A stretch of DNA of 64,000 nucleotides from the IMG/VR virus record IMGVR_UViG_3300042691_030495; one strand, 5' to 3'. The stretch comes from a virus. Each line of letters starts with the position of its first letter. Position 1 is the first letter of the stretch. The translations under genes and the position numbers were made by a program. The notes beneath the pieces were generated by a model. The model searched no databases and had not been told where the DNA came from. It was given only the letters and a program-made list of their open reading frames with translations. This document shows positions 5,175-28,095 of the stretch, one piece after another.

Positions 5175-6926
5175 TTGGGAATTTTCAATAAGAACAGCAA
5201 AAACACACGTAGAGAATCTACTAACAGTCGCTTTAGGGCTTCGGTGCCTCGCACTGCGACCCCTGTTGCTCCAGGCATCTCTGTAGATTCTTTCGGTTTG
5301 GTTTATGCAGAGCCCGCGGCCTACAACACCCCTAGAGCTTTAACTGCAGCAGCAGCCCAGATAAAAATTGGTGACAAAACAGAGGCAGAGCAGTTTAAAG
5401 CTCGTAGACAGTCCGCTTCTTCGTCCTGGCAGACAGAAGCTTGGGAGTACTACGACGCGATTGGCGAAATTAAGTACGCTTTTAATCTTGTTGCTGCAGT
5501 TGTATCCCGTATTCGAATCTACGCAGCATCTGTAGACAACCCAGCCGAGGCTCCTGTTCCTGTAAATATCTCAGCGAACATAGATCCTCAGCTAGCAAGA
5601 GCCGCTGAGCGCGCATTGGCAAGACTTAACTCAGCATACGGTGGTCAGGCAGGTCTTTTGAAAGACGCTGCTCTAAATCTTCAGGTTACTGGAGAGTGCT
5701 ACCTAGTTCAGGTTCCAGAACGTGTTGGCACTGGTCTTCCAGAGAGCTGGGACATGAGATCTGTAGATGAACTACAGCTAGACTCCAGAGGAAACTATGT
5801 CATTAGCCCAATTCGCGATGTTTCAGGATCTTCTTCCAACCAAACTTCAAAAAGTGCGATAAAACTTCCTAAGGACGCGTTTATTGGACGCATTTGGAAG
5901 TCTCACCCTCGTTACTCACTAGAGTCAGACTCATCGCTGCGCGGTCTACTCGATCTTTGCGCTGAACTTCTACTTCTTAACCGCACCTTCCGTGCAACTG
6001 CACGTTCACGCTTGAACGCTGGTGCTCTCTACTTGCCAGACGGACTGTCAGTAGCATCTTCTCCGGATCCAGACTACCCATACGATGAAGATGGCGAATA
6101 CAACGAGCAGTATAACGCCGAGGAAGCTGCTGACGACTTCGAAGATCAACTAATCGACGCGATGACCACTCCGATTAAGGACGAAGACTCCGCGAGCGCC
6201 GTTGTCCCACTTATCATTCGTGGACCTGCAGAACTTGGCGACAAGATCAAGCAGTTTAAGTTCGAGCGTTCGTTTGACGCCAGCCTTGTGCAGCGTGCTG
6301 ACCGAGTCCTTGAGAGAATCATGCAGGGTCTAGACGTCCCTAAGGATGTTGTAACAGGTCTTGCAAATGTTAAGTATTCAAACGCTCTACAGATTGACGA
6401 AGCACTCTACAAGGCTCACATCGAACCTCTAATGCTTCTTATTGTTGACGCTTTGACTGTTGTTTACTTGCGTCCATACCTAATTGCAAACGGCTATGAC
6501 GAAGAAGCTGTAGCCAAGATTCAGGTTTGGTATGACCCAAGTCAGGTAGCAACCAGAAATGACAGAGCTACCGACGCAGACAGCGGATTCGACAAGATGG
6601 CAGTCTCCTACAACACATGGAGACGCGCGCACGGATTCTCAGATGCAGACGCACCTAGCCCAGCAGAACTTGCACTACGCCTTGTAATTGAGAAGGGTAT
6701 GATCACCCCTGAGCTAACTCAAAGCATGCTAGAAGCGGTTGCGCCTGAACTTAAAGATCTTATTAACGCAGCAAGTCAAGCCAGCTCTGTAGCTCCTATG
6801 CCACCAGAGATTGAGCAATTGCTAGCTGGACAGCCAGTGGCTCCTGGAGCAGAGGCACCTACCGAAGAGCCTGCAGCAGAAGCCCCGGGTCTTGCAGAAC
6901 CAGTAGCTCCTCAAGAAGGGCAGTAA
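5175..6926 (+). CDS. portal protein
   Basis: Position after terL, size, WQTEAWEYYDAIGEIKYA and RSRLNAGALYLP motifs typical of actinophage portals; GGGAG SD before TTG. Confidence 0.85.
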   Translation: MGIFNKNSKNTRRESTNSRFRASVPRTATPVAPGISVDSFGLVYAEPAAYNTPRALTAAAAQIKIGDKTEAEQFKARRQSASSSWQTEAWEYYDAIGEIKYAFNLVAAVVSRIRIYAASVDNPAEAPVPVNISANIDPQLARAAERALARLNSAYGGQAGLLKDAALNLQVTGECYLVQVPERVGTGLPESWDMRSVDELQLDSRGNYVISPIRDVSGSSSNQTSKSAIKLPKDAFIGRIWKSHPRYSLESDSSLRGLLDLCAELLLLNRTFRATARSRLNAGALYLPDGLSVASSPDPDYPYDEDGEYNEQYNAEEAADDFEDQLIDAMTTPIKDEDSASAVVPLIIRGPAELGDKIKQFKFERSFDASLVQRADRVLERIMQGLDVPKDVVTGLANVKYSNALQIDEALYKAHIEPLMLLIVDALTVVYLRPYLIANGYDEEAVAKIQVWYDPSQVATRNDRATDADSGFDKMAVSYNTWRRAHGFSDADAPSPAELALRLVIEKGMITPELTQSMLEAVAPELKDLINAASQASSVAPMPPEIEQLLAGQPVAPGAEAPTEEPAAEAPGLAEPVAPQEGQ

Positions 6927-6928
6927 TA

Positions 6929-7384
6929 GTGGACCAGCCATCTAGCGTAGATCTTGCAAAGAAACTTGCTCATCTACTGTCTGACGTAGTTTCTCTGTCT
7001 TTTATTTCTCAGGGGCACCACTGGAACATTAAAGGTTTTAACTTTTATCAGTTCCACGCGTTCTTTGCAGAAATATACGAAGACACTTCTTCAGCGATTG
7101 ATCCTCTTGCAGAAAACATTAGAAAGCTAGGATTCAATGCCCCCTATCTTCTAACTGACTTTTCCGAGATGACCTGCATCAACCAAGAACGAATTGACGG
7201 AGACGCCATTGAGTCTATTAATTCTTTAGTTAGTGCAAACAGTATTGTAACTAACTGCTACGCAGATGCTTTTGAGCTTGCAGAAAACTGCAACCAACCA
7301 GGCATTGCAGACTTCCTTGCTGGAAGACATGAGATGCACCAGAAGTGGCAGTGGCAGTTAGAGTCAACTTTAGGGATTAGATAA
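6929..7384 (+). CDS. dps: Dps / ferritin-like DNA-protection protein
   Basis: HHWNIKGFNFYQFHAFFAEIYE...IDPLAENIRKLG and HQKWQWQL ferroxidase-centre motifs. Confidence 0.9.
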   Translation: MDQPSSVDLAKKLAHLLSDVVSLSFISQGHHWNIKGFNFYQFHAFFAEIYEDTSSAIDPLAENIRKLGFNAPYLLTDFSEMTCINQERIDGDAIESINSLVSANSIVTNCYADAFELAENCNQPGIADFLAGRHEMHQKWQWQLESTLGIR

Positions 7385-8076
7385 TGTCTTCGTATTTAGA
7401 GTCTGCTTTTGGTGGAAACTCAAATATCTCGGGATACTCTTTAGTCCCAGAAGAGCAAGAGTTTGCTGACGCAATCCTAAAGGTTGCCAAAAAGTACGGA
7501 AAGTTTAACGACGACAACAGCGGTGTTTGGGTTGGGTACACTCCTGCCTCAGAGAATGAGGAGAACGCTCAGATTGGCGTTAAGTGTGGCAACTGTGTCT
7601 TCTTCATGGGCGGAAATGCCTGCCAGATCCTAGCTGAAGCAGTGGAGGAGAACGGCCTATGCCGTCTTGCTGTATTGCCAGATGGCGCAGTCACTGCTAC
7701 AGCTGGCTCAAAGCCTGCTCCGAAAAAAGATCAAATCAAAGGATCTAAAAAGAACCCTAAAGGTTCGGCCGACGATGGCAAGAGCGTAACTTTCAACGAA
7801 ACCATAATTACGTCCCTCAAGAACAAGGTAGAAAGCCACAACGAAAAGGCAGAAGCTGGCAGAAAAGCAACTCTTCCAACTCTAAAAGCTGTATACCGCA
7901 GGGGTGCTGGAGCTTTCTCTACATCTCACAGGCCTGACCAGAATCGCAACTCTTGGGCTATGGCCAGAGTGAACGCATACCTGCACTTACTAAAAACCGG
8001 ATCTCCTAAAAACTCAAAGTACACAACAGATAATGACCTGCTACCAAAGGGTCACCCAAAGTCAACAAAGAAATAA
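7384..8076 (+). CDS. two-domain head-associated protein: HiPIP-like 4-Cys domain plus basic phage domain
   Basis: KCGNCVFF..C..G.C pattern; C-terminal VYRRGAGAFSTSHRP..WAMARVNAYL..DLLPKGHP. Confidence 0.65.
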   Translation: MSSYLESAFGGNSNISGYSLVPEEQEFADAILKVAKKYGKFNDDNSGVWVGYTPASENEENAQIGVKCGNCVFFMGGNACQILAEAVEENGLCRLAVLPDGAVTATAGSKPAPKKDQIKGSKKNPKGSADDGKSVTFNETIITSLKNKVESHNEKAEAGRKATLPTLKAVYRRGAGAFSTSHRPDQNRNSWAMARVNAYLHLLKTGSPKNSKYTTDNDLLPKGHPKSTKK

Positions 8077-8149: not shown

Positions 8150-11100
8150 GTGAGCCAAGCGTTCGATTCCCTACTCGCTAAGATCGAGAACTACTACTCT
8201 GACGCGGATTACACCGTTCAAGACGCCGAGCACCTGTCTCGCATCGCTATCTCCGAATACGCTTCGACTCAGAATGCTCTAGTAGCTTCGGCTCGTCAAC
8301 TTTCCAATAATTCAGTACAAAAAATTATTGACCTAACAATTAATAAGCACATAACTGCAGACCCAAGCGAGTGGATGCTCTTCGCAGCAAATGCCGTAGA
8401 CAACGTAATTAACTACTCACAGCGCGGTGTACTAGCTTCTGGTCTTTCAGACTTTACAGACTTTTTACCAGTAGGTCACCCGTCAAGAACTAACCGCGGG
8501 GCTATGACCGCCTCTGCACTAAACCAGGCCACCGCGCTTTGGACTGCTGCAGACCCTCGCATTGCTTCTGACGAAGCTAGATACGACACATACAAAGCAT
8601 ACGCAAGCCAGCCAGGATCAGTTGAAGCAGACTACGCAGCGTATAAACTTTCAGCACTAGTTGCAGCAGGTTATGTTCCAGAAGACATTAGTCTTCCGAT
8701 CACTGCAGCGTTCAGAATGAGCTTTGCAATGCGCTCCGCAATGTCTAAGGCACTTGCTGCTGTACGTCGTCGCCACCGCGATGGTAGATTCGCTGAAGAG
8801 TTTGGACGTCTAAAGGGATTCTTTAGCCGTGGAGACGGAAGCATTTTCTCTGAAAACGGAAGAATTGTTGGCGCTGAGCGTGGGACCAACAACTTTGAGG
8901 TAGAGTTCAGCGGATCCGACGAGATTCCAGATGGTATCTACACCATCGATGCAGCTAAGACAGATTCCGTTAAAGCTGTTCTATCTAAGCGCGCACTGAA
9001 AGGCGTTAAAGGAAAGCGCAGTATTGCAGTGCCGACTCAGGCAGAGCGAGACGCTGCTATTCCTCTAGACGAGTTTATAAAAACTAAAAAAGATGCACCA
9101 GAGGGTTGGACTAAGAACGAAGATGGATCTTTTACATCTAAGACAGGTCAGACACTACGTCAGGTAGACACTCGCCCTGAAGGTGACTACATGTTTGAAG
9201 GTGCTGGCGAAAGTGGTGCCGAAGATCCTAACGAACCGTTCTTTGAGTTAACTGACAGAGACGGCGAAATAATCGGTGTTGCTCAGGACTGGGCCGGCGC
9301 AAACAAAATTGCACTTACCTACGATGCTTTTGAAGAAGACAGCAAGCCAGAACCAGAAGAGCCAGGTCTCGACCAAGACGCTCCTGCCTCTGATCAAGAG
9401 GATCCTACAGCCATTGGAAAACCGGAAGACCCTAGAGCAGCTGCAATAGAAGATTTAGTATCCAACCTTGACTCTGCTGAAGCAAGAAGAGAATTTGAGC
9501 GCATGGAGCGGAGAGATGGCTCTTGGCTTGACTCAGAGCAGCCATCAATAGACGCGTATGGACCTGACGATAAGAATCTGAACTGGAATGCTGAGTACGA
9601 CAAAACTACTAAGGACCTTATAGAAAAGATTTTTAGTGACCCAGCAGTTGTCGAAGCTCGTAATGATAGGCCACTAGCTAAAACGCAAGAGGGCGACCCT
9701 GAGGACTGGGAATTAGACAATTGGTACCAAGAAGTCGGCGCTGCAATTTCATGGGCAGCAAAAAAGTACGCAGAAGAAGCTGCACCGGGCCTCGACCAAG
9801 ATGCTCCTCGAAGCTTAAATGAGCCAGAAGACTCCGCTGTTGACATCGGTCCAGACCTAGAGAGAACTGACAGCGGAGATTTAGAGTACTACTCTGACAC
9901 TGCTGGTGCTGACATCTCTAAAGTTGGAGACAAGTGGCAGCTCGTCAAGAGCGGGTTTGAGGATATTGAACAGCACCCACGCGGTGTCTACCAGTATGAA
10001 GACACTAAGATGTTTGACTCCGAGCAAGAAGCCATAGCTGAAGCACAAAAGTGGATTGATTTAGGTAAGTCTTCTGACTTCTACGACTTTATGTATAACG
10101 ACTGGTTTGATGGCCAAGCAGATGGCCTAGACCAGGATGCCAAAAACCCTAACTGGTTTGAAGACGCTATTGACTTTGATGCCATAGACAATCAGGATAG
10201 CTGGAAAGACCTAGGCGGAGGCTCCAGAGAGTACACCTCACCAGACGGAAAACTAAAACTAACTTTTGAACCAGACGGCGACTCGGACGGTGAGGGTGGA
10301 CTTGTAGACGCCTCCGGAATTACTGTTGAGTACGATGGTCAATCTGTTGGCAGCTTTAAGGCAACCGAGCGCGACCTCACGTCTCCAGGAGAAGTTGCAG
10401 ACGCCCTTAGCCGTACTTTAGCTGAAGCTAATTTTAATCCTAACGATTTAATAAAATTTGATGATTTTGGAAATTACGGCTTCGAGCGAGAGAGCGGTCT
10501 TGGCACAGTTTCTATCTCTAAAAAGTACGACCCAAACACTAAGAAACTCCAGTGGGAAGTAACTAAAGAAGCTCGCGACCTTATTGATGAGAACGTTGAG
10601 CACTCTTTCTTTGAGCAAAAAAAGTTTGACTCCTTAGATGACGCAAGAGCTTTCGCTGAAGAGTTTGCTCAGATTCTTAACGATGACGACAAATTCTCCA
10701 AATTCCTAAACGATGACTGGGCAGACAGAGACTACGACTACGGCTTTGACCAAGCAGGCGGATCTACGACAGATACCGTAAAGCAGCTTGCTGACGGATA
10801 CAACATCACTCCTCGTGTAGAAATAGTTTACAATTCGAACACCAAGCAGTATGAGCGTTCAGTAAACTCGAACGAGTTTGAAGCAGACGGTGACTTCTAC
10901 GACTTTGGTTCGGCAGTAGTTAACCTGTCTGAATATGCTCCAGGTAAATGGGTAGCAACTATCTTCTATGGAGATAGGGATGGCAGTGGCCAGGATACCC
11001 TTGAACTTGAGCAAGACTTCAACAGCCCCGAGGAAGCCTTCGAGTGGGTAGCTAACGGATTTGGTAAAGGGTTTGACAACTCTCAGGTTGCGGAAGGTGT

Positions 11101-13591
11101 ATTAGAACGTCAAGACCTAGATGAGATGGCTAGCTTCCTGCAGAACCCTAAGTACAAGGATGCTCACGACGAAGTCCGTGATGTTTACGATGAGCTCAAC
11201 TCAAAGTACTTTGAGCAGGCTCCTGGATCAGGAGAGATCGAGGCCACAGAAGGCGGAAATGCTTCCTACAAAGGACCAGATGGATCTACTGGATCTATAA
11301 AGTCCGACGGCTCCGGCACCTGGGAAGGCTCCTTCACAGACGCTGAGGGAGAAGTCTCCACCAGAAAGTTTAAAGCAGAAGATAAAGCTGCTGCTTGGCT
11401 ACAGAAAAAAGTAGACGACTCTAAATTAGCTGCGTTTAAGAAAGAAAATGGCGGGCTATCTCCAAAGCAGCTCGAGCCAGCTACCTCTAAGCAGTATGAC
11501 CTACTGCAGGAACTTTTTGACGAGCGCGACGAGATTGATTCTCTAACTTCTGACGCCATCAAAGATGCTCTAGACAACCGCAACCTTTCTAAGTCTCAGA
11601 TTTCTGCCCTATTTGGCGATCTTCAGAAGAAGCCGTTCAAGCCAGGAGTAGACTCCACTAAGCCAACCGACAGAATGTTGAACTCTCTACAGGGCTACCT
11701 GACTACAAAGCAGATTTCTCCAGAAGAGCTAGACGACATCCTCAGTCAGCTTGAGGCAGGACTAGACCGCCCTGGCATCGAGGCCTTGACAAACAAGCTA
11801 CGTCGTAAGCCAGATAACGCTGACGCAGCTGGCCTTGACCAAGATGTTAACTCCAAGATTGACCCCACTATGCCTGACTCAGCAGTAGGTGCTGATGATG
11901 ACATTAAGCAAGAAATTGAAGACGCTATTGAGCGCGCCCGTAGCGATCACGAGCGCCTATTTGACGAAATAAATGCAAAAGAAGAAGACGGAGAGATAAC
12001 TCCGGAAGAGGCAGAGTCCCAGCGGGATGAGCTAGAGCAGGGCTTGGAGCAGTTCCAGTGGGCTGCCCGTAGACGCTACTACGATTATCTTTGGGAGACC
12101 GGAGAGTTCAACGAAGCGTACAACGATGTTCTAGAAGCATGGAACTCGCAGAGTTTCCGCGATGAGGAAAGAGATAGAGCTTCACTATTTGACGAAGAAA
12201 ACGAAGAGGATGAGGGATTAGACCAAGACGCTCCAACCAAGCCTCTCACCGAAAAGCAGCTAGAGCCAGCTTCTGACGCTCAGTACAACTACCTACAGAG
12301 TCTTGTTGAATCCAAGATGAATGTAGACGCTGACACTGCCGCCGCTGTTGCTGAAGCAGCTACTAACAAGAACCTAAGCAAGGCTCAGGCCGGTGCTCTT
12401 ATTGGCAAGCTCCGTGTTCTAGATGACAAAGAAAATCTTGGTCAGTACGGCAAGCCTTCTCAAAAGATGATTGACTCGGTTAATCGCGACGTCTACGCTA
12501 AGGGACTTTCCGAAGAAGACAGAAACGAGATTTTAAAAGATCTTGACAGCTTGTCTAAGGCTGATGTCTCAAGCATCATAAGCCAGCTCAAGGAGATGCC
12601 AAACGTTCCTGGAGGTCTCGACAACTACATCAAGTCTTTAGTTGAAGATGGAGATCTTGAGGCACTTAAGAGACTAAGAGCTGACGTTAGAAATGAAGAC
12701 TCCTTCTCTGTATTAGACAAAGCTATAGCTGATGTCGAGGCCGGAAACACTCCTGGACTAGATCAGGCTGCTCCTTCAGCTCCGGCTTCAGGACCTCTCT
12801 ATGACAGGGACGAAGCTTCGAACCTACTAGACGAGATAAAAGCGGCTGAAGACGCTGGTGAAATTGGTAGCACCTTCTTGCCAACAGACTCTCTTAAGGA
12901 TTTTGACCCTGAAGACATCGGAGATGCGGCTAGCATGTATGTCGAGTTAGACGATGCTATCGGCAATGTTGGAGAGGGCAGCTTAAGACAGAAGCTAGAG
13001 CAGTTTGCTGAAAAACTACTCAGCAGCATCCAGTCTAGGCTTGGCCCAGTTGAGTCCGCTAAGCGCGACAGCGATGATATCGGAAGCGAATTAGAGTTTG
13101 ATCGCACTTCTAGAAGAGCTAACGATCTTGTTGAGTTCTACTACCCCTCAGAAGGTATCGCTTTTGACCAGCTAAATGAGCCAGGAAACAGCAATGTTGG
13201 AGACAACAGAGGCGGCGGCTGGGAAGCACGAGTTGCTCTAGACGAAGATGAAGAAGAGGAAACTTGGGTTGCAACCTTAACCTCTCCCGAAAACGACAGC
13301 CAAAACGAGCAAAGAAGTTTTGACAACCAAGAAGACGCGGCTCGCTGGGCAGCAGAAAACTTAGAGTCTAATAATAACGAGCTTTTGCCATCAGAATTAG
13401 ATGAGTTTTTGAGTGGACAAATCTTCTCGACTTATGCTGACAACCCTCAGGCGCTAATCTCTAAGCTGAACGACATAGCTGAGTGGTTCCGAGGAACCCG
13501 TAGAGGCGACGGAGAAGACGTAGCTAGGGGAATCCTAGAATACGTAGATCGACTAGAAAACCTTCTTGGAGACTCTGCCCCAAAAGCGTAG
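8150..13591 (+). CDS. giant acidic polyvalent protein / putative polyprotein with repeated G[LF]DQ linkers
   Basis: 1813 aa, AGAAAGG SD, 7 G[LF]DQ plus one YFEQ motif separating small domains; in head module. Confidence 0.85.
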   Translation: MSQAFDSLLAKIENYYSDADYTVQDAEHLSRIAISEYASTQNALVASARQLSNNSVQKIIDLTINKHITADPSEWMLFAANAVDNVINYSQRGVLASGLSDFTDFLPVGHPSRTNRGAMTASALNQATALWTAADPRIASDEARYDTYKAYASQPGSVEADYAAYKLSALVAAGYVPEDISLPITAAFRMSFAMRSAMSKALAAVRRRHRDGRFAEEFGRLKGFFSRGDGSIFSENGRIVGAERGTNNFEVEFSGSDEIPDGIYTIDAAKTDSVKAVLSKRALKGVKGKRSIAVPTQAERDAAIPLDEFIKTKKDAPEGWTKNEDGSFTSKTGQTLRQVDTRPEGDYMFEGAGESGAEDPNEPFFELTDRDGEIIGVAQDWAGANKIALTYDAFEEDSKPEPEEPGLDQDAPASDQEDPTAIGKPEDPRAAAIEDLVSNLDSAEARREFERMERRDGSWLDSEQPSIDAYGPDDKNLNWNAEYDKTTKDLIEKIFSDPAVVEARNDRPLAKTQEGDPEDWELDNWYQEVGAAISWAAKKYAEEAAPGLDQDAPRSLNEPEDSAVDIGPDLERTDSGDLEYYSDTAGADISKVGDKWQLVKSGFEDIEQHPRGVYQYEDTKMFDSEQEAIAEAQKWIDLGKSSDFYDFMYNDWFDGQADGLDQDAKNPNWFEDAIDFDAIDNQDSWKDLGGGSREYTSPDGKLKLTFEPDGDSDGEGGLVDASGITVEYDGQSVGSFKATERDLTSPGEVADALSRTLAEANFNPNDLIKFDDFGNYGFERESGLGTVSISKKYDPNTKKLQWEVTKEARDLIDENVEHSFFEQKKFDSLDDARAFAEEFAQILNDDDKFSKFLNDDWADRDYDYGFDQAGGSTTDTVKQLADGYNITPRVEIVYNSNTKQYERSVNSNEFEADGDFYDFGSAVVNLSEYAPGKWVATIFYGDRDGSGQDTLELEQDFNSPEEAFEWVANGFGKGFDNSQVAEGVLERQDLDEMASFLQNPKYKDAHDEVRDVYDELNSKYFEQAPGSGEIEATEGGNASYKGPDGSTGSIKSDGSGTWEGSFTDAEGEVSTRKFKAEDKAAAWLQKKVDDSKLAAFKKENGGLSPKQLEPATSKQYDLLQELFDERDEIDSLTSDAIKDALDNRNLSKSQISALFGDLQKKPFKPGVDSTKPTDRMLNSLQGYLTTKQISPEELDDILSQLEAGLDRPGIEALTNKLRRKPDNADAAGLDQDVNSKIDPTMPDSAVGADDDIKQEIEDAIERARSDHERLFDEINAKEEDGEITPEEAESQRDELEQGLEQFQWAARRRYYDYLWETGEFNEAYNDVLEAWNSQSFRDEERDRASLFDEENEEDEGLDQDAPTKPLTEKQLEPASDAQYNYLQSLVESKMNVDADTAAAVAEAATNKNLSKAQAGALIGKLRVLDDKENLGQYGKPSQKMIDSVNRDVYAKGLSEEDRNEILKDLDSLSKADVSSIISQLKEMPNVPGGLDNYIKSLVEDGDLEALKRLRADVRNEDSFSVLDKAIADVEAGNTPGLDQAAPSAPASGPLYDRDEASNLLDEIKAAEDAGEIGSTFLPTDSLKDFDPEDIGDAASMYVELDDAIGNVGEGSLRQKLEQFAEKLLSSIQSRLGPVESAKRDSDDIGSELEFDRTSRRANDLVEFYYPSEGIAFDQLNEPGNSNVGDNRGGGWEARVALDEDEEEETWVATLTSPENDSQNEQRSFDNQEDAARWAAENLESNNNELLPSELDEFLSGQIFSTYADNPQALISKLNDIAEWFRGTRRGDGEDVARGILEYVDRLENLLGDSAPKA

Positions 13592-13608
13592 CCCCCAGCG
13601 AGGGGGCT
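13579..13608 (+). other. programmed -1 ribosomal frameshift signal
   Basis: C CCA AAA heptamer in correct phase (13579-13585), hairpin AGCCCCC-AGCGA-GGGGGCT (13590-13608), -1 frame open to 15897 and encodes GLDQDA. Confidence 0.8.
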
Positions 13609-15897
13609 GACAGTGGTGTTGGTCTAGATCAAGATGCCGCGGCTATTGACAGAATTAACAAGGTTCTAGCTAAGTATCGCCCTGAGCCAGCGCCAAGCAA
13701 CTCTGTACGTCCTGCGGTAGCAGTGGGCGAGCCAGGATCTAAAGCTAACCCACTCAAGCTAGATGACGAGCAGCTACAAGAAAAAACTACACAGGTCACT
13801 AAAACCAACCTAGCTGCTTCAATTTCAGTTCTTTCTGAACTATATGACGCTTTTGATAATGTTAAAAAATTCGCATTTTGGCGAAGAAAATGGGACCGCA
13901 ACGCTACTAGGCCTATACCAGTAAACCCTGGTACTGGAGCCTACTACAAAGGTCCCAACGTGTTTGCTTTAGAAGAGGCAGCGGCTAAGAACGGATTTAG
14001 CGACCCTCGTTGGATGACCGCTCAGCAAATACTAAATATGGGTGGGTCAGTTCCTAGCGGTACCAAAGGTACACAAATCCTAGTCCCTCAGGTTTTGGTT
14101 ACTGATGTCAAAGGCAAAGTTGTAGAGCTGTATGAGTTTATGAAGGTTACTGTTTTTAATGGCGACCAGGTCGATGGAATCCCGTCATATAACCAAGATG
14201 ACAACAAATCATATACTCCAGAAGAAGCTGCGAATATTCTTTTAGACCGCCTACGCGAAGCCTCTGAGATCAGAGACACCGGACAACCAAATGTATTTGG
14301 GATTCAGCTTGATGAAGATCAAAATCCTCGATGGATGCCAAACTACGGTTCTTTTCAGCCTGAAAAAATACGACTACCGCTTAGAGCAAATTTTGAGGAT
14401 GACGAAGAGTGGTTTAACACTCTAGCTCACGAACTTATCCACTCTACGGGTAAACTTAACCGACTTGATAGAAAAGAACTAGATAAAGCTTTTGAAGGTG
14501 ATGACTCAAGTAGGGCGGAGGAAGAGCTTACTGCAGAGCTAGGTGCCATGATTTTAAGTCGAATGTTTGGAATAGGTTCTGATTCTAAAAACTCTACAGC
14601 ATACTTACTTAACCACTTAAAAAATGTTAAAGAGCAAGATCGCAACAACGCTGTAACCGCTGCAGTGTCTAGAGCACAGGTTGCGGTTGAGTACTTACTG
14701 GGGAATGATGTTTTGCCTCAGTGGGACCCACTAAAGACTAAGGTCTTCCCAACCATACAGTCTGAAAGATTAGATGTCACTACTCCAAAAGCTTCAAGCT
14801 TAAACCCAGACCCAACTCCTGACTTTGTTGATGCCCAGTTAGCTGGCTTTGATCAGGCAGTAGGAGAGGAGTCAGTCGACCAGGGTAAGTCAATATCAAA
14901 CAGCAAAGACGCCAAAGAAAAAGTTCTGTCTAGCCTGTTAGAAAAAATTAAAGAAGGTAAGACTCCTTGGCGTAAACCGTTTAAAGAAGGATCAAACTTT
15001 GCAGGAGCAGACTTACCTAGAAACCCAGCATCAAAGCATATCTACAATGGCATAAACGCGATGGTTCTAAGACTAAACCAGCAGCTTTCTGGATATGACG
15101 ACCCTCGTTGGATGACATACAAGCAAGCTCAGGATCTCGGTGGAAACGTTAGAAAAGGCGAGAAGGGTGTTCCAATTCTTATACCTTTCAAGCAGGTTCG
15201 CAAAGAGAAAGATTCTGCAACTGGACAAGAAGTAGTTACCGGTAGCTTTATAAGATTTGGAACCGGAACAGTCTTTAACGTCTCTCAGATTGATGGCATT
15301 ACTCTTCCTACTGCTAAAGAAGAGGCAGGAGAACCAAAGACTCCTCTAGAGGCTCAAGAATTTATTTTAGAGCGCTACAAAAAGTCTATGGAAGCTAAAG
15401 GTCTAAAGACACCAGAAGTTGAGTACACCTACATTGGAGAGTACGGGAACCACGCTTCTTCTCCAAACTGGAGTCCTTCTCTAGATAGAATTACACTTCC
15501 AACCAAGGAGCAGTTCAACAGTCCAGAAGACATGTTTGACACTATTGCCCACGAGCTAGCCCACAGCACGGGACACAAGGATCGCCTAGATAGGACAGAA
15601 CTTACCAGCAAGTATGGATCTGATAGCGCCGCTCGCGGCCAAGAGGAGCTCATAGCTGAGATAGCAGCTGCTATTTTGGCGAGCATGTTTGGAGTCAATA
15701 GCGACTTTGATAACACTGCAGCTTACGTAAAGAGCTGGCTTGCAGCCCTAAAGGATGACCCTAACATGGTTACCCTATCCTCCTCAGAAGCCCAGAAGGT
15801 AGTAGACTACATACTAGGCATGGATCTAGGAGACTGGAGTCCAATAGAAGGCTACAAATCTACAGTTACTAAAAAAGATGGAGACTCAGATGAGTGA
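13585..15897 (+). CDS. ardC: tandem ArdC (ssDNA-binding plus zincin MPTase) modules, probably C-terminal part of frameshift fusion
   Basis: Two copies of W-R-[RK]..P.NP....Y.G.N..DPRWMT..Q...GG.V..G.KG plus HELIH/HELAH and EEL.AE; GTG at 13723 lacks an SD. Confidence 0.85.
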   Translation, partial: SVAPSEGADSGVGLDQDAAAIDRINKVLAKYRPEPAPSNSVRPAVAVGEPGSKANPLKLDDEQLQEKTTQVTKTNLAASISVLSELYDAFDNVKKFAFWRRKWDRNATRPIPVNPGTGAYYKGPNVFALEEAAAKNGFSDPRWMTAQQILNMGGSVPSGTKGTQILVPQVLVTDVKGKVVELYEFMKVTVFNGDQVDGIPSYNQDDNKSYTPEEAANILLDRLREASEIRDTGQPNVFGIQLDEDQNPRWMPNYGSFQPEKIRLPLRANFEDDEEWFNTLAHELIHSTGKLNRLDRKELDKAFEGDDSSRAEEELTAELGAMILSRMFGIGSDSKNSTAYLLNHLKNVKEQDRNNAVTAAVSRAQVAVEYLLGNDVLPQWDPLKTKVFPTIQSERLDVTTPKASSLNPDPTPDFVDAQLAGFDQAVGEESVDQGKSISNSKDAKEKVLSSLLEKIKEGKTPWRKPFKEGSNFAGADLPRNPASKHIYNGINAMVLRLNQQLSGYDDPRWMTYKQAQDLGGNVRKGEKGVPILIPFKQVRKEKDSATGQEVVTGSFIRFGTGTVFNVSQIDGITLPTAKEEAGEPKTPLEAQEFILERYKKSMEAKGLKTPEVEYTYIGEYGNHASSPNWSPSLDRITLPTKEQFNSPEDMFDTIAHELAHSTGHKDRLDRTELTSKYGSDSAARGQEELIAEIAAAILASMFGVNSDFDNTAAYVKSWLAALKDDPNMVTLSSSEAQKVVDYILGMDLGDWSPIEGYKSTVTKKDGDSDE

Positions 15898-16057
15898 AAA
15901 GAAACCAGACATCCTAGGTGGTTACACTGAAAATGATCCAGAATACTGGGCACTTTTAGCAAAGATCATAGGGAACCCTGTGCCAGAGTACGAAGACGAC
16001 AGCGAGTTCGTTGACGAAAATGGCGTTGTCATAAAAGACATAAAGCCCGCTGAATAA
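15890..16057 (+). CDS. small acidic protein (55 aa, not in ORF track)
   Basis: GGAG SD, overlaps ardC stop; MSEKKPDILGGYTENDPEYWALLAKIIGNPVPEYEDDSEFVDENGVVIKDIKPAE. Confidence 0.65.
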   Translation: MSEKKPDILGGYTENDPEYWALLAKIIGNPVPEYEDDSEFVDENGVVIKDIKPAE

Positions 16058-16076
16058 ATCACTTATAAAAATAACG

Positions 16077-16115: not shown

Positions 16116-19100
16116 ATGAATAACCTAATTGGCCGCTCTGGCAGCTTGTCTCTCTATGCTAATAACGAGCATGGAGTGATTATTGACTCCTCCATCGGAG
16201 CAGTTGTTGCTAGTGGTGCTGCTTCTGACGTTTACTTCCTTGAGAGCTGGGATCTTCCGACTGATCCGGGGGCTAAAGCTGAAATTCTATTAGCTGAAAA
16301 AGCCTTGAGCGCTCTTGAAGAAAAAGCTATTGTTGCTGCCGCCGACAGAATGTACACAATTCCGAAAACTGTACAGGCTGAAGCTAAGAAAGCTTTAGAG
16401 TGGCGCAAAGAAGAGAACCGTGGGGGAACTCCTGTAGGTCTTAACACTGCTCGCACTCTTGCAAAAGGCGGTCAGATTGGCATTCGTAAGATTCGCCACA
16501 TTGCAAAATACTTCCCTCGTCATGAGGTAGACAAAAAAGGCAAGGGCTGGAAGCCTGGCCAAGAAAACTATCCATCTAACGGACGCATCGCGTGGGCACT
16601 CTGGGGTGGAGATGCAGCATGGCGCTGGGCACGCACAATTGTAGAGCGTGAAAACAAAAAGCCTGTAACTTCAGGGGGCTACTACCCAGGGCAGACAAAC
16701 TTCGAAACAAGCTCGGAAGATATAAATCCATTTAAATACGCTAACGATCTTGACATGCACTACGGACCTGAATTTTTAGTCAGAGTCTGCTTAGACGGTT
16801 CCGGAATGGATCGCCTATACATGGTTGACATCGACGGATCGATTTACGTGTGGGACGACTCTAACTGGGACAACATGGGACATGTCGATGGTGATGTGTG
16901 GACATACGATCGTATGCTAGATGATGTTTACGATACTCAGGAAAAAACTCACGTAATTATCGACCCTCAGTCGGCTCTGCAAATAGCAGCACGCATGGCT
17001 GTAGATCCTGGTTGCAAAGTAACTATGTATGAGCTTGACCAGGATGAAGCAGCTCTTACTATGTCAGGGCTTCAGGATGAAGACTGGGACTTTATAGACC
17101 AAGTAATTGTTGCAGCCGGTACAGCTGACCCAACGACATCCCAGGCAGATAAAGATGGTGACGGAGTACTAGACTCTGATTTCTTATCTGAAAAAGCAGA
17201 AAACCAACCTAGAGATGCACGCGGTCAATTTGCTGCTGCAGGTTCTAGGGTTATTGTTGGTGGCGACGCCCAGCGCGGGTCAGGTGTTATTACAAAAGTA
17301 GACAGCAAGACCGGAATGGTTTCCGTTCGACTTGACAGCGGAAAAGAAATTGAAGTAGACGCTAAGTACACCGAAGGCGAAAAAGGCTTTGTTGGCCCTA
17401 GAGCCGTACCTAAGACCGTAGCCCCATTAGACCTTTCTGGAATTATTGGAGAATCTAGAACTCCAATTAACATGCCTAATGCTCACCTTCCTGGAACGCT
17501 ACCTCCGATGTCCAGTAGAGACATTGACAACATGCTTTACAACTGGCCTAAGTACGTATCTGACATGCGCAGTTCCTACAAGCCAGCAGACGCAGCAGAC
17601 AAAGAACGAGTAAAAAAGACCTGGGGACTTGAAAAGTTTGCAGGAGAAAACTCTATTGTTGCCGCAGCGGAAACAGAAAAGACGCTAACTCCAGCTACCT
17701 CAGATGTTCCACCTAAATACCTAGCAATAGTTACAGAGGAAAATCCTCAGGACGTAGTAGATCTAGTTGCACTGGTTCCAGCCAGTGCTACCTCTACCGA
17801 GCCTATTGCCTACACTAGAGATGGTGACAAGTGGGTCCGCGACGATCAGACCATGGCTGACCTCCGCTCTTCAACAAAGCCGCCTGTTATTGAGCTAGAC
17901 AAAGAGTCTCTAAATGATGTGCTTACTCAAATGTCTGAAACCGAAAAAGCCCCAACAAAGGGCATAGAAGAGTTTTCTACATTAAAAAATATTAATGCTA
18001 TCTTTGATGCTTTTGTTGCAGCTGGCGGTTTAGACCGTAACCGAGGAAACGCGGAAGAGCTTCGCCGTTACTGGACTTCAGGTAAGGGTGCAGCCAAGAT
18101 CCGTTGGGGAACCCCGGGGGACTGGACTAGATGTGTTCGTCAGCTTTCTAAGTACATGGGACCTAGAGCTAAGGGTTACTGCCAGCTCAGACATAAGGAT
18201 GCCACGGGAGTATATACAGGCAGTAGGCTAAACCCCGGAAGAGAAAACTCTATGGAATCCCAGATGTTTTCGTCCTTAGAAGATTTTAACCAGAAAGTTA
18301 TAGCCCACTCTGAGCTTGTAGCTAGGGCCGCGCACGCTAAAGAAAGATTTGCTGTAACTGCAGGAGCAACTCCAATGATGGACTCTGGCGCTAGGTTTAC
18401 TATCCCTCTTTTGATACCAGAGGAGCTAGAGTCTGGCGATGGAAGAAAGTTCAAGAAGGACTCAATAACACTTAGAGAACTTCCGCTACCTTTGCTATGG
18501 CAAATTAAGACTGGAGAAGGTCACGCCGGATCTGTAGTTGTTGGTCGGATTGACTACATAGAGAGAACCGAGAACGGATTAGGCAACGCCTATGGAGTTT
18601 TTGACACTGGAGCTTACGGAAAAGAAGCTGAACGTCTAGTTAGGAATGGATTCCTACGTGGAGTCTCCGCCGACCTAGATCAGTTTGAGGCTAAAGAAGA
18701 TAAGAAGCCTAAGCCTGAAGGTTCTGCGGAACTAGAAGACGAGGGAGAGATCGGCAAAGACAAACTCACGGTCAATAGGGCACGCGTAATGGCTGCTACA
18801 ATTGTAGCAAAGCCTGCATTCCAGGAATGCACTATTTCTATTGACGAATCAGGCTACCAGGAGGAAGAAAACATGCCCCTAACCGACGGTCTCTATGAGG
18901 AGACAATTGACTCTACCGTCGTGCCGCTAGTTGCCTCAGGATTTTTAGATTCAGAGATTCCTGTAGTTCCACCACAGGACTGGTTCGAAAACCCTAATCT
19001 AACTAAGCCAACCCCTCTAACTGTAGACCCAAGCGGTCGCATTTATGGTCACATTGCAGCATGGCACGTAAACCACATTGGTATGCCTCGCTCGACTCGT

Positions 19101-20675
19101 CCACCTCGCTCTAAGAGCAAGTACTCCTACTTCCACACTGGTGTTGTTCGCACAGACGCTGGTAAGGATATTCCAGTCGGACAGCTAACTCTTGCAGGCG
19201 GCCACGCAGATTTAACTGCTAGCGCATCTCAGGCTGCTAAGCACTACGACGACACCGCTTCAGCAATTGCTGACGTTTGCGCCGGAGAAGACGAGTACGG
19301 AATCTACGTATGCGGTTCACTACGCCCAGGCGCAACCGAAATGCAGATTCGTGCACTACGCGCTTCTGCTCCTTCAGGCGACTGGAGACCAATCAACGGC
19401 TCACTTGAGCTAGTTGCAGTTTGCCAAGTTAACGTCCCAGGATTCCCTATTGCTCGTGCACTTGTTGCATCTGGCAAGGTTATGGCTTTGGTTGCTGCTG
19501 GCGCTAGCTTCTTTGCAATTATGAAGAGCGAGCACGTAGAGCACTTTGTAACTAGAGCAGAGCGTCTATCTCAGCTAGCTGCTTCAACTCCAGACTTAAA
19601 GTCTAGAGTTAAGAAAGCCAAAAAAGAAGCCAAGACTTATGCAATAACCGCTGCGGCTAAAAAGGTTGAGACCATGCGTGAGCGGGCACTTATTGCTGCT
19701 GCTGCAGCCGAGCTTTCAAAGATTAGCGAATTGCAGCGTAAACATCTTGCAGTATCTGGCAAAGCACTTCCAGATGGCTCATACCCGATTCGCAACGTAG
19801 AAGATCTAAAGAATGCAATACAGGCTTACGGAAGATCAAATCCAGAAGATCGCAAAGCGGTTAGAGCTCACATTCGCAAGCGCGCAGAAGCTTTAGGTAA
19901 AACTGACCTAGTTCCAGAAAACTGGAAGGCTGCTGCCATTGTAGATGTGCAGAGCTCCGCAGAAAAGATGCGCTCAGTTATTGCAGCTGTCAACGCAAAG
20001 CTTACTGAGTTTGCTGAAGTCGACGAGATCACTGACGCTGACCTAGAAAAGCTTAAGGACGCTAAAACAGAAGCTGACAAGCAGACCGAAGAAGAAATTC
20101 AGCAGGCAGAAGACGTCCGCACTGGAAAGACTACTGCAGAAGATAAGTTTGATGAGGATGGCCGCACAAAATTTACGCCAAAGACTCAGCCTCGCGATGC
20201 TAAAGGTAAGTACCGCAAGGTCTTGGCTAGATTAAAGCAGAACCTAGGAGTAGCCGGTCTACAGAAGGCACTACTTAAGGTTCAAGAAGCCGAAAACCTA
20301 GAGTTTTCCGGTAACTACACCAAGTCGGCTGCTGCCAGCTCAGAGCTTTTGGACATGATTGACAGATTGGACACTAAGGCGCTAAACCCAGAGGCCTTGG
20401 AGAACGTTCGACTAACTGCCGCAGAGCTAGGCAAGACTATTGCCAACCTGCCCCTGCCTTTTGGCAAGGAATCATCAAAATTAAGATTTAGCGATTTACC
20501 GTCTGGACTCAAGGATCTCATCGAAAAGATGATTACTCGGGTCGAGGCCAAAATCGGTAAAGAAGACGCGGCCGTCGCCACTAAAGGCCTGCAGTCCTAT
20601 ATGTCTGGAGCAGATGTCTACTCCCAGGGTGAAATTCAGTCTGAGATGAGCAAGCTACTCCGACTCCTTACCTAA
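16116..20675 (+). CDS. multidomain capsid maturation protease
   Basis: HK97/assemblin-like domain (SGDGRKF..LPLPLLWQ..GH..VVGRID..GVSAD..IVAKPAF), second related domain (GHIAAW..SGDWR..VNVPGFP), IAWALWGGD domain, KIRWGTPGD..RC domain, DGSYPI (DUF6582-like) domain. Confidence 0.8.
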   Translation: MNNLIGRSGSLSLYANNEHGVIIDSSIGAVVASGAASDVYFLESWDLPTDPGAKAEILLAEKALSALEEKAIVAAADRMYTIPKTVQAEAKKALEWRKEENRGGTPVGLNTARTLAKGGQIGIRKIRHIAKYFPRHEVDKKGKGWKPGQENYPSNGRIAWALWGGDAAWRWARTIVERENKKPVTSGGYYPGQTNFETSSEDINPFKYANDLDMHYGPEFLVRVCLDGSGMDRLYMVDIDGSIYVWDDSNWDNMGHVDGDVWTYDRMLDDVYDTQEKTHVIIDPQSALQIAARMAVDPGCKVTMYELDQDEAALTMSGLQDEDWDFIDQVIVAAGTADPTTSQADKDGDGVLDSDFLSEKAENQPRDARGQFAAAGSRVIVGGDAQRGSGVITKVDSKTGMVSVRLDSGKEIEVDAKYTEGEKGFVGPRAVPKTVAPLDLSGIIGESRTPINMPNAHLPGTLPPMSSRDIDNMLYNWPKYVSDMRSSYKPADAADKERVKKTWGLEKFAGENSIVAAAETEKTLTPATSDVPPKYLAIVTEENPQDVVDLVALVPASATSTEPIAYTRDGDKWVRDDQTMADLRSSTKPPVIELDKESLNDVLTQMSETEKAPTKGIEEFSTLKNINAIFDAFVAAGGLDRNRGNAEELRRYWTSGKGAAKIRWGTPGDWTRCVRQLSKYMGPRAKGYCQLRHKDATGVYTGSRLNPGRENSMESQMFSSLEDFNQKVIAHSELVARAAHAKERFAVTAGATPMMDSGARFTIPLLIPEELESGDGRKFKKDSITLRELPLPLLWQIKTGEGHAGSVVVGRIDYIERTENGLGNAYGVFDTGAYGKEAERLVRNGFLRGVSADLDQFEAKEDKKPKPEGSAELEDEGEIGKDKLTVNRARVMAATIVAKPAFQECTISIDESGYQEEENMPLTDGLYEETIDSTVVPLVASGFLDSEIPVVPPQDWFENPNLTKPTPLTVDPSGRIYGHIAAWHVNHIGMPRSTRPPRSKSKYSYFHTGVVRTDAGKDIPVGQLTLAGGHADLTASASQAAKHYDDTASAIADVCAGEDEYGIYVCGSLRPGATEMQIRALRASAPSGDWRPINGSLELVAVCQVNVPGFPIARALVASGKVMALVAAGASFFAIMKSEHVEHFVTRAERLSQLAASTPDLKSRVKKAKKEAKTYAITAAAKKVETMRERALIAAAAAELSKISELQRKHLAVSGKALPDGSYPIRNVEDLKNAIQAYGRSNPEDRKAVRAHIRKRAEALGKTDLVPENWKAAAIVDVQSSAEKMRSVIAAVNAKLTEFAEVDEITDADLEKLKDAKTEADKQTEEEIQQAEDVRTGKTTAEDKFDEDGRTKFTPKTQPRDAKGKYRKVLARLKQNLGVAGLQKALLKVQEAENLEFSGNYTKSAAASSELLDMIDRLDTKALNPEALENVRLTAAELGKTIANLPLPFGKESSKLRFSDLPSGLKDLIEKMITRVEAKIGKEDAAVATKGLQSYMSGADVYSQGEIQSEMSKLLRLLT

Positions 20676-20796: not shown

Positions 20797-22791
20797 GTGT
20801 ACGACCAAATTAAAACTCAGCTGGACACCATCGCTGAGCTTAGCGACGAACAAGTCGCAGAGCTTCAGTCAGATGTTGTTTCGCAGTTTGAACTGGTTGA
20901 GGGTGAAGATCCTACTCCTGAGACAGTTGATGCTATGACGTCGCTAGCCGATTCTCTTGACATGATTCGTGGCGAGCTTTCTCGCCGTGAGTCATTGGCT
21001 GCAGAGCTTGCAGCAAAGGCCGCTGAAGCCGTTGCTCGTGTTAAGGGCCAGGCTGACGACGCAGGAGAGGAAATGGCTATGACCGAAGACGAGCCTATGG
21101 AGGACGAAACTCCTATGGAGGACGCCCCTATGGAGGAAGCACCAGCTTCTGAACCAGAGGCCGAAGTCGAGGTAGAGGCAAAAGAAGAAGACAAAGAAGA
21201 TGAGGATGAGGCCATGAAGGCTTCAGCTGAAATTTCTGAGGACGCTCCCGAGCTTGTTACCGAAAGCCCAGTCGAAGCAGAAGCTTCTTCAGAAGAAGTT
21301 GCAGAAATTGCAACTTCAGAAGAAGTTGTTGCTGAAGCATCAACCAATCAGGAAGACGGTTCTGAACTATCAACAACCGAAGAAACCGCAGTAGAAACTG
21401 CAGAACTAGCAACTGAAGTTGCTGAAGGTTCTGAAGCTTCAACTGAAGAAAATATCGAATCATCAATCGCTCTTGTAGAAGAGCAGGAAGAGCAGGCCCC
21501 AGTGACCGCCGCAGCCGAACAGCCTTTCGAGGCCCCAGCTGACCGTCAGCCTGTTGTTCAGGTAACCGAAGCTCCAGTGGCAATCACCGCTGGCGCAGAT
21601 ATTCCTGGCTACACCGCTGGCAGCACAATCAACGACATGTACGAGGTAGCCCAGGCTATGGAGAAGCGCATCCACTCGCTTCGTCGTGTCAACGGAGGAG
21701 ACGGAGAGCAGCACATTGTTGCATCTGTAACCACCTCGTTCCCAGAGGAGCGCGTCCTCTCAACCGATGCAGAGTCTAACTCGATCAAGATCAACGCTGT
21801 TTCAAGCCAGGCACTTGTTGCTTCTGGTGGACACGCAGCGCCTCTAGAGGTCAAGTACGACATCTACGCAATCGGTTCTACCACTAACCGCCCAGTACGT
21901 GACTCATTGCCACGTTTCCAGGCAGACCGCGGTGGTATCCGTTACGTAACCCCACCAAGCTTTGCTGCTGGTTCATATGCTGACGCTGTTGGCGTTTGGA
22001 CTGCTGCTGTAGACGCTGACCCAGAGGCTGCTGTAAAGGCAAGCCTAACTGTTTCAGCTGCTGCAGAGCTTACTGCTACCACTGACGCTGTAACCCTACA
22101 GCTACAGTTCGGTAACCTTATGACTCGCGCTTACCCAGAGTTGATTGCTCGCCACAACGAGCTAGCTCTAGTACAGCACGCACGTGAGGCTGAGCAGTAC
22201 GTAATTAGCAAGATTGAGGCCGGCTCTACCGCTGTTACTTCTGGAACCCTAATCGGTTTTGGTCGCGACTTCCTAGTGTCAGTCCGCAAGGCAGCTGTTG
22301 CTTACCGTTCCCGTCACCGCATTGCTCAGAGCACTACTCTGACCGCAATTGTTCCTGACTGGATCTACGACGCAATGGCAGCTGACCTAGCTCTAGCTAT
22401 GCCAGGAGACGGTACTCTGTCTGTTGGCCGTGGCGAGATCGAGGGCTACCTAGCACAGCTAAACGTGAACCTAGTTGCATCACCTGACATGACCGTTTAC
22501 GGTTCTCAGGGTACTGCTGCACTTCTAGAGTTCCCAGACAGCTTCAAGTGGTACCTATTCGCTGAGGGAACATTCTTGTTCCTTGACGGTGGTTCACTAG
22601 ACCTAGGTATCATCCGCGACAGCTCCCTTGTTGGAACCAACGACTACAAGATGTTCGTTGAGACCTTCGAAGGTGTTGCAAAGGTTGGTATCGAGGCACT
22701 TGTTGTCACCCAGACCGTTAACGTTAACGGTGTGGCTGCTGCTCTACGCGACACCACTGGTGGCGCAACCGCAGCTGCAATCGAGGTCTAA
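20797..22791 (+). CDS. major capsid protein (hexamer-type) with N-terminal acidic scaffold region
   Basis: AGGAGG SD; ~340-aa E-rich leader ending ALVASGG followed by ~320-aa capsid domain (LPRFQADRGGI, LDLGIIRDS, NDYKMFVETFEG); highly biased codons. Confidence 0.85.
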   Translation: MYDQIKTQLDTIAELSDEQVAELQSDVVSQFELVEGEDPTPETVDAMTSLADSLDMIRGELSRRESLAAELAAKAAEAVARVKGQADDAGEEMAMTEDEPMEDETPMEDAPMEEAPASEPEAEVEVEAKEEDKEDEDEAMKASAEISEDAPELVTESPVEAEASSEEVAEIATSEEVVAEASTNQEDGSELSTTEETAVETAELATEVAEGSEASTEENIESSIALVEEQEEQAPVTAAAEQPFEAPADRQPVVQVTEAPVAITAGADIPGYTAGSTINDMYEVAQAMEKRIHSLRRVNGGDGEQHIVASVTTSFPEERVLSTDAESNSIKINAVSSQALVASGGHAAPLEVKYDIYAIGSTTNRPVRDSLPRFQADRGGIRYVTPPSFAAGSYADAVGVWTAAVDADPEAAVKASLTVSAAAELTATTDAVTLQLQFGNLMTRAYPELIARHNELALVQHAREAEQYVISKIEAGSTAVTSGTLIGFGRDFLVSVRKAAVAYRSRHRIAQSTTLTAIVPDWIYDAMAADLALAMPGDGTLSVGRGEIEGYLAQLNVNLVASPDMTVYGSQGTAALLEFPDSFKWYLFAEGTFLFLDGGSLDLGIIRDSSLVGTNDYKMFVETFEGVAKVGIEALVVTQTVNVNGVAAALRDTTGGATAAAIEV

Positions 22792-27373: not shown

Positions 27374-27712
27374 ATGGCAAAATTTAAAGATTTTGGTGCT
27401 GGAAAATCTCCAGAAAATACTGAAGCTATCTCGTTTAAACTTTACGAAGAAGAGTTCTTCTGCGTTCCAAGTCTACAGGGTCGAGTTATGTTATCCCTAG
27501 TTAAAGACTCTGCGAGCGAAAACCCAGCGGTTGCCGCTGAAACAATTGATAACTTTTTCAATCAAGCATTGACTGACGAGAGCCTAGAGCGTTTTAATGC
27601 TCTTACTCTTGACAAAGACAGAATTGTAACAACCGAAACTCTAGGAGAGATTGTCGGTTGGCTACTAGAGGAGTACTCTGGACGCCCGGAAGCGCAGCCA
27701 GAGGTCTCCTAA
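27374..27712 (+). CDS. tail assembly chaperone
   Basis: Two genes before tape measure; ends WLLEEYSGRP as in actinophage TACs. Confidence 0.75.
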   Translation: MAKFKDFGAGKSPENTEAISFKLYEEEFFCVPSLQGRVMLSLVKDSASENPAVAAETIDNFFNQALTDESLERFNALTLDKDRIVTTETLGEIVGWLLEEYSGRPEAQPEVS

Positions 27713-28095
27713 GTTGGGCGATTGATCTCTGGCCTTATGTAAATGGTAAAGCTCTCTTTAATGGCCTCAGGCTACAAGACATGGATGCAGCTGAAATGCT
27801 GGACATCATTCATTTCATGTTTGAGGACGACATGAGATATTCCACAGCAGAAGAGGTTCAAGCCCAGAGCAAGTTTAGGACAAACTTTTACCGGCTTTAC
27901 GGCAAAGAGTATAAGTATGGCTCTGACAGTAGTGCAGGCACCACTTATGGAGGCAGAACATATGTTCCTGCTGGAGGAGTGGATGAGTTTGACCCAAGCC
28001 CCGTTGATGCACGTAAGCCATACGTTGCACCAACAAAGTTCAACCCAGAATCGGCTAATCCGTTTGGATCAGTCTTAGACGCACCACTCGGATAA
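27685..28095 (+). CDS. tail assembly chaperone second (-1) frame; start uncertain
   Basis: Overlapping -1 frame ORF directly before tape measure. Confidence 0.6.
   Translation, partial: PGSAARGLLSWAIDLWPYVNGKALFNGLRLQDMDAAEMLDIIHFMFEDDMRYSTAEEVQAQSKFRTNFYRLYGKEYKYGSDSSAGTTYGGRTYVPAGGVDEFDPSPVDARKPYVAPTKFNPESANPFGSVLDAPLG

Follow-up and report, generated by a model that had tools for sequence, protein, structure and literature searches.

Evidence for a programmed -1 ribosomal frameshift that leads from a giant phage head-module gene into ArdC-metallopeptidase cargo

Background

Do all ribosomes stop at the end of a giant head-module gene of a tailed phage, or do some of them step back one base and read on into an overlapping frame that encodes enzymes? 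The locus that raises this question lies in IMG/VR virus record IMGVR_UViG_3300042691_030495, a stretch of 64,000 nucleotides (nt) that we call the window and that is the structural arm of a tailed phage. Between its portal and major capsid protein (MCP) genes, an open reading frame (ORF) of 1813 amino acids (aa) ends just past a slippery heptamer, overlapped in the -1 frame by an ORF that encodes ArdC-type modules. A sequence-only reading of this DNA had proposed that programmed ribosomal frameshifting (PRF) joins the two. We find that ribosomes very probably do shift here, a reading supported by conservation of the signal, by rare codons frozen within it, by a conserved -1 peptide that has no start codon, and by homologues in which both parts are fused in one frame.

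Other PRF in phages is described at tail chaperone genes and where capsid or tail proteins gain extensions, Ig-like domains for instance (PMC5009743). Our literature search for PRF in ArdC or polyvalent phage proteins found no case. Polyvalent proteins have been proposed to be packaged, delivered with the DNA and autoprocessed by their MPTase (Iyer et al. 2017, PMC5512222), and anti-restriction function is known for plasmid ArdC only (PMC7213743).

Results

The predicted frameshift site

The elements at and around the joint, with positions in the window, are as follows.

8150-13591, + strand: giant 0-frame ORF, 1813 aa, product ending ...GDSAPKA, no Pfam match
13528-15897, + strand: open -1 frame ORF
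13579-13585, + strand: slippery heptamer C CCA AAA in 0-frame phase X XXY YYZ (P site CCA to CCC, A site AAA to AAA)
13586-13591, + strand: spacer codon GCG and 0-frame stop TAG (13589-13591), the stop lying inside the 5' arm of the extended hairpin
13589-13609, + strand: predicted stimulatory hairpin, UAGCCCCC / loop AGCGA / GGGGGCUG
13585-15897, + strand: -1 extension after the slip, 770 aa plus stop
13621-13635, + strand: linker motif G-L-D-Q-D, read in the -1 frame, 30 nt past the 0-frame stop and 88 nt 5' of the first possible start
13879-14736, + strand: ArdC-N plus zincin metallopeptidase, unit 1 (HELIH at 14428-14442)
14905-15849, + strand: ArdC-N plus zincin metallopeptidase, unit 2 (HELAH at 15550-15564)

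The giant ORF ends in GCC CCA AAA GCG TAG, and the assembled sequence at the slip site is CCCCAAAA. The sequence-only reading placed an in-phase C CCA AAA one codon ahead of the TAG, which is exact, and a 7-bp GC hairpin behind it, which is present and grows to 8 bp when a U-G pair is counted: (U)AGCCCCC / agcga / GGGGGCU(G). The C5/G5 core of this hairpin pairs 13592-13596 with 13602-13606. Predicted folding energy of the 30 nt 3' of the heptamer is -15.8 kcal/mol in the window and -12 to -23 kcal/mol overall. In-phase slippery heptamers alone are not rare: the large ORFs of the window, 8382 codons together, have 12. For CCCCC-N5-GGGGG, 0.01 copies would be expected in the 64 kb and one is present; the complete 29-nt signal is also present once, with 0 expected. 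Rfam has no family at 13300-13900, and a GGAG upstream of the site, which might have served as a stimulator resembling a Shine-Dalgarno (SD) sequence, is not conserved among the aligned relatives. The features by which PRF sites are recognised are found together here: the in-phase X XXY YYZ heptamer, a stable predicted RNA structure within 5-9 nt on its 3' side (the core begins at 6 nt), a long overlapping -1 ORF without an initiation signal of its own, and conservation beyond coding need, in the form of rare codons frozen in the stem.

The -1 extension and its missing start

It had been claimed that the -1 frame is open from 13528 and start-less until an SD-less GTG at 13723, that it reads PKSVAPSEGADSGVGLDQDAAA with a linker motif of the upstream type, and that the fusion would be about 2582 aa long; all of this is borne out. 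The first ATG, GTG or TTG in the -1 frame is GTG 13723, which has no SD, and the predicted fusion comprises 1812 + 770 = 2582 aa. The -1 frame peptide in the window includes a tryptic peptide, SVAPSEGADSGVGLDQDAAAIDR, that lies 5' of every possible start. It aligns with relatives from residue 1 onward (PKS[VL]AP.EGAEPGLDQDAP.L.RI..IL.KYR...), and the 45 codons 5' of GTG 13723 are conserved as protein. The GTG itself corresponds to Glu in relatives. Candidate starts first appear at scattered positions, 59-236 nt past the stop, none with an SD. Over its full length the extension is, as protein, 42-68% identical to its relatives.

The ArdC payload named in the earlier reading proves to be two complete ArdC-N/MPTase units: PF08401 (ArdcN, 2.3e-47) and PF18818 (MPTase-PolyVal, 9.1e-49) each match in two stretches above the gathering score. 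HELIH and HELAH are both followed downstream by an EEL.AE motif, and HExxH is intact in each unit.

Conservation of the cassette in relatives

Eleven distinct relatives were recovered by protein homology: IMG/VR and metagenomes were searched with the two proteins that flank the joint rather than with the signal, and longer homologues were traced to their contigs. This gave the loci L003, L004, L005, L006, L007 (identical to L022), L008, L011, L021, L023 (TARA ocean) and L024. Conservation of heptamer and hairpin in related genomes was the check that the sequence-only reading had proposed, and the same cassette stands at every one of these loci: [C CCA AAA or A AAA AAA]-GCN-TAG/TAA-CCCCC-N5-GGGGG, leading from frame 0 to frame -1. 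Flanking DNA is only 36-88% identical, and upstream codons and loop vary freely while the cassette is fixed. Among 13 aligned sequences the heptamer is C CCA AAA in 10 and A AAA AAA in three (L007, L023, L028), in phase in all; GCN and TAG/TAA, as well as the C-G core pairs, are present in 13/13. Counted across independent metagenomes (IMG/VR, JGI, GenBank WGS, TARA), at least 13 distinct sequences share the frame break, stop and hairpin. A scan of IMG/VR with a degenerate pattern returned 11 matches, all 11 of them between a giant ORF and a -1 ORF of 700-1370 codons, with zero false positives.

The stem codons encode Ala/Thr-Pro ... x-Gly in the -1 frame and are identical in all relatives, even though CCC and GGG are the phage's rarest codons for their residues (6% of Pro and 7% of Gly codons, respectively). 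Among the other invariant residues of the extension with four-fold-degenerate codons, the third base is kept in 1/14. Since the core pairs never vary, the structural claim rests on this invariance against synonymous drift; the alignment has one compensatory change, G-C to A-U at the sixth pair, in L028. Giant genes that carry no ArdC (DSL-LC01, Microbacterium phage Cece) are followed by a gene in the -1 frame with an ordinary ATG and SD, and have neither heptamer nor hairpin, which indicates that the signal is specific to the cargo-bearing group.

In-frame fused homologues and variety of cargo

In two more distant syntenic phages the leader, modules and two ArdC-MPTase units lie in a single frame, as P0005 (2848 aa, L025) and P0006 (3832 aa, L026). 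Because these proteins are single-frame, the two ORFs of the window correspond to one polypeptide elsewhere. Their synteny runs portal, ferritin fusion, giant gene, small ORF, a protein of ~1600 aa, and MCP where the locus reaches that far. P0005 matches the leader of P0001, the giant protein of the window, at 38% and the ArdC pair at 44%; P0006 gives a similar match. At the equivalent joint L025 reads TCG CCC AAG GCA GCA, without a phase-correct heptamer, stop or hairpin. The frameshifted lineages, judged from these sequences, have kept a device that would also yield a short form. A side observation concerns L026:5216-6001, where the match of the called 3832-aa gene to P0001 begins only at residue ~224 and an uncalled gap of 785 nt lies ahead of it; the first part of the leader may be in another frame or missing there.

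Extensions range from 770 to about 1600 aa across the group, and their cargo differs by lineage:

window, L003-L008 and L028: two ArdC-MPTase units
L024/P0003: about 800 additional aa with a ParB-like motif (EGNHRV), then two ArdC-MPTase units
L023 (early contig end) and L027 (ORF stops after it): ADP-ribosyltransferase
L029: ADP-ribosyltransferase and ArdC-MPTase

Given the shift, the window's product combines leader, unknown modules and 2x(ArdC-N+MPTase), i.e. several unrelated effector domains in one polypeptide, as is characteristic of polyvalent proteins.

Leader, modules and linkers of the giant protein

The giant protein consists of a conserved N-terminal leader of ~400 aa followed by variable modules between G-[LF]-D-Q linkers. 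Leader identity is 70-73% to close relatives and 37-39% to distant ones. The leader is the best conserved part, compared with 47-63% for the C-terminal modules; given this difference, and an MCP identity of 90% between the window and L006, the cargo part appears to evolve fast, as expected for conflict proteins. The N-terminal parts of the giant protein and of a 3289-aa protein of DSL-LC01 share 33% identity over ~290 aa. An AlphaFold2 model of the leader has pLDDT 69.9 and pTM 0.42, and a Foldseek search of it against PDB returned nothing below E = 0.25. A short domain (RRRHRDGRFAEEFGRLKGFF ... IPDGIYTI) at window 8700-9140 (P0001 residues ~182-330) recurs in the N-termini of Microbacterium phage Cece gp68 and of the DSL-LC01 giant protein. 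The RRRHRDGRFAEEFGRLKGFF domain, which has no recognisable fold, may be a leader common to the giant head-module proteins of this phage group.

All nine occurrences of G-[LF]-D-Q-[DA] in the six-frame translation of the whole window fall within the giant ORF and the -1 ORF, and most relatives also have a linker motif after the joint. Per 1000 aa, the window, L003, L006 and L008 have 4-5 copies of G-[LF]-D-Q; L027 has GFAQ (9x) and GFSQ (3x) instead, and L007 and L023 have no such linker repeat. The linker seems to drift by lineage. Its link to the presence of MPTase is partial, for it is absent both from the ArdC-less giant proteins (DSL-LC01, Cece) and from the MPTase-bearing L007. The giant ORF of L006 contains a single in-frame TGA (L006:5746-5748), with coding and GLDQ linkers continuing on both sides; this TGA may mark a genuine split, stop-codon readthrough or a fault of assembly.

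Gene neighbourhood

The neighbouring genes of the window are:

3104-4513: large terminase
5175-6926: portal
6929-7384: Dps/ferritin-like gene
7384-8076: DUF5824 protein
16116-20675: 1519-aa protein whose PHROG matches carry the annotations portal, virion structural protein and head maturation protease
20797-22791: MCP (phrog_777)
28113-30956: candidate tape measure gene, identified by size and position only

This order (terminase, portal, Dps, giant gene, protease-like protein, MCP) confirms by synteny the earlier label of the giant gene as a head-module gene. By capsid protein the nearest GenBank phages are the lake metagenome phage DSL-LC01 (70%) and then large Microbacterium, Arthrobacter and Gordonia phages; the phage is an actinophage-like siphovirus. 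A blastn search of the region against GenBank phages found zero DNA-level relatives, and in the MCP tree the frameshift-bearing genomes, the fused form and DSL-LC01 form an unresolved polytomy. Genome GC is 46%.

Several further features of the neighbourhood were observed. The Dps/ferritin-like gene lies immediately 3' of the portal gene in the window, and in the in-frame-fused relatives the corresponding part is found inside a 371-aa protein (L025:6739-7854; L026:4101-5216). In all gene-called loci, fused forms included, a small ORF of 48-72 aa comes after the ArdC extension or overlaps its end (window ~15890-16060; L024:5155-5352; L025:16489-16707; L026:17507-17683). The L003 homologue of the 1519-aa protease-like gene is in two overlapping frames (10532-12646 and 12558-15479), and is intact at the other loci. 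Just 5' of the candidate tape measure gene is a putative tail assembly chaperone pair, 27374-27712 and a -1 frame open at 27613-28095, whose overlap (within window 27374-28095) has no canonical X XXY YYZ heptamer.

Discussion

Alternative explanations

A frame break next to short homopolymers can arise in ways other than PRF. The site consists of two 4-nt homopolymers, CCCC and AAAA, and fused homologues exist in frame, which would fit the loss of a base in either run from a truly continuous 2582-aa gene. Such an error is next to inconceivable here: independent metagenomes show the same break, and a conserved 0-frame stop one codon further on would be purposeless; because the layout is the same at all loci despite diverged flanks, we regard sequencing or assembly error as excluded. 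The break might instead be real and mark decay, a frameshift mutation having inactivated a C-terminal ArdC part that now drifts. Apart from the frame break itself nothing points that way, and a 770-aa ORF that has stayed open, with both HExxH motifs, strong Pfam scores and 42-68% identity to relatives from end to end, makes decay extremely improbable.

If RNA polymerase added an A within the A-run, the edited message would be read through in the -1 frame, and L007, L023 and L028 have seven A in a row, long enough for slippage of the kind known from bacteria (reviewed in PMC5009743). Most members, the window included, have only four A, and transcriptional slippage needs neither the constant X XXY YYZ phase nor a conserved hairpin at dnaX-like spacing; we think it very unlikely. 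It is also conceivable that the two ORFs are separate genes, the ArdC ORF initiating by itself at GTG 13723 or at a non-canonical codon, with heptamer and hairpin incidental or in another role. A start at the GTG would leave both ArdC units whole, and public gene callers do annotate the ArdC ORF as a protein of its own. This arrangement is nonetheless highly improbable, given that the GTG is not conserved, that the candidate starts are SD-less and lie 59-236 nt past the stop, that the stretch 5' of the GTG shows protein-level conservation and contains the linker specific to this gene pair, and that the signal is in phase in all relatives.

The programmed -1 frameshift at the end of the giant gene, which we favour over these accounts, has points against it as well. 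Its five core pairs are invariant, so that there is almost no covariation support for the hairpin, and control shuffles in the covariation test were not decisive. The stem encodes a conserved A/T-P-x-x-G peptide, and its conservation could in part be at the protein level. The trans-frame protein is predicted from sequence, and the slip presumes compatible tRNAs in the host. Packaging into the virion, in turn, rests on gene position (synteny from portal to protease and MCP), and the leader has no recognisable fold.

Proposed mechanism

Ribosomes arriving at C CCA AAA would hold tRNA-Pro in the P site and tRNA-Lys in the A site, while the G+C-rich hairpin, its core 6 nt downstream, would slow unwinding. 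In some of them both tRNAs would re-pair one base back, on CCC AAA, and translation would go on in the -1 frame; the others would read GCG and terminate at UAG. Two products with a common N-terminal leader are predicted, a 1813-aa 'core' polyprotein and a 2582-aa form that also bears the two units of ArdC-N (binding single-stranded DNA) and zincin metallopeptidase. The enzyme cargo is present only in the long predicted product, which from the usual behaviour of -1 PRF would be the minor, substoichiometric form. Head-internal, MuF-like or polyvalent proteins are encoded at a corresponding position, and we infer that both products enter the virion by way of the leader and reach the host together with the DNA, as anti-defence cargo of the polyvalent type. 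Cleavage at the G-[LF]-D-Q linkers, of which one is just past the joint, would then free the modules, an idea that their distribution partly supports.

A more far-reaching possibility, which we offer tentatively and consider doubtful, is a Gag-Pro-Pol-like device in a double-stranded DNA phage, in which the low-dose zincin peptidase of the -1 frame would cut G-[LF]-x-Q linkers of both products in the capsid or after ejection, and the joint would serve as a plug-in point for cargo swapped between lineages (ArdC/MPTase, ADP-ribosyltransferase, ParB-like).

Comparison with known systems

A close likeness is the end of the major head gene of Lactobacillus phage A2, ACC CCA AAA GCG TAA (NC_004112), which has the same heptamer and spacer as the window and TAA in place of TAG. 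In A2 too a head-module gene is concerned, and the shift gives a second product extended at its C-terminus; it reportedly occurs exactly at the C CCA AAA heptamer. The -1 frameshift between its major head proteins gp5A and gp5B has been published (Garcia et al. 2004, as cited in PMC5009743 and PMC10885494). It differs in that the A2 shift is in the capsid gene itself and adds an Ig-like domain (PMC5009743), whereas here a giant non-capsid polyprotein gains an enzyme extension, and the structure downstream of the A2 site is unlike that of the window. A capsid-protein frameshift of the T7 10A/B or A2 gp5A/B kind was considered for the window and does not fit, MCP being a separate gene at 20797-22791.

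Tail assembly chaperones G/GT (Xu, Hendrix, Duda 2004) likewise have a conserved -1 PRF in structural operons of tailed phages that sets the ratio of a short to a long product. The site of the window, however, is in the head module, about 14 kb 5' of the tape measure gene, and the proteins are unrelated; assignment to this class was rejected on the ground that the site is between portal and MCP. E. coli dnaX (tau/gamma) offers a bacterial heptamer with a simple stem-loop about 6 nt downstream and a nearby stop, but its shift shortens the product where that of the window lengthens it, and its upstream SD-like stimulator is not conserved here.

Retroviral Gag-Pro-Pol and coronavirus ORF1a/1b resemble the window in having a long polyprotein whose -1 extension adds enzymes at a lower dose, a peptidase included, to a common N-terminal part for assembly or targeting. 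Those are eukaryotic RNA viruses that usually employ pseudoknots, however, and self-cleavage of the window polyprotein is hypothetical. The polyvalent proteins of Iyer et al. 2017 resemble the window's predicted product in being very large and in combining several domains, with ArdC-N, MPTase and ADP-ribosyltransferase among them; they are single polypeptides, and the word 'frameshift' is absent from that paper (PMC5512222), whereas here the enzyme modules are predicted to be reached only by recoding. PRFect lists MuF-like and VIP2 ADP-ribosyltransferase genes, which elsewhere form a single fusion gene, among its false-positive predictions.

Conclusions

The predicted shift differs from textbook phage frameshifts, those of tail chaperones and small capsid decorations, in that it controls enzyme cargo on a giant head-module polyprotein. 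That the shift cassette agrees exactly with the end of the major head gene of A2 suggests that it is portable across Gram-positive phage hosts, and its signature is compact (24-29 nt) and highly specific, all of the IMG/VR matches being true. If the reading is right, the annotation of such loci would be corrected, in which present gene models show a 'hypothetical protein' beside an 'ArdC' whose start codon is invented. The reading would further mean that phages can dose injected cargo by recoding, with anti-defence or toxin-like enzymes, 770 to about 1600 aa in length, placed behind the shift.

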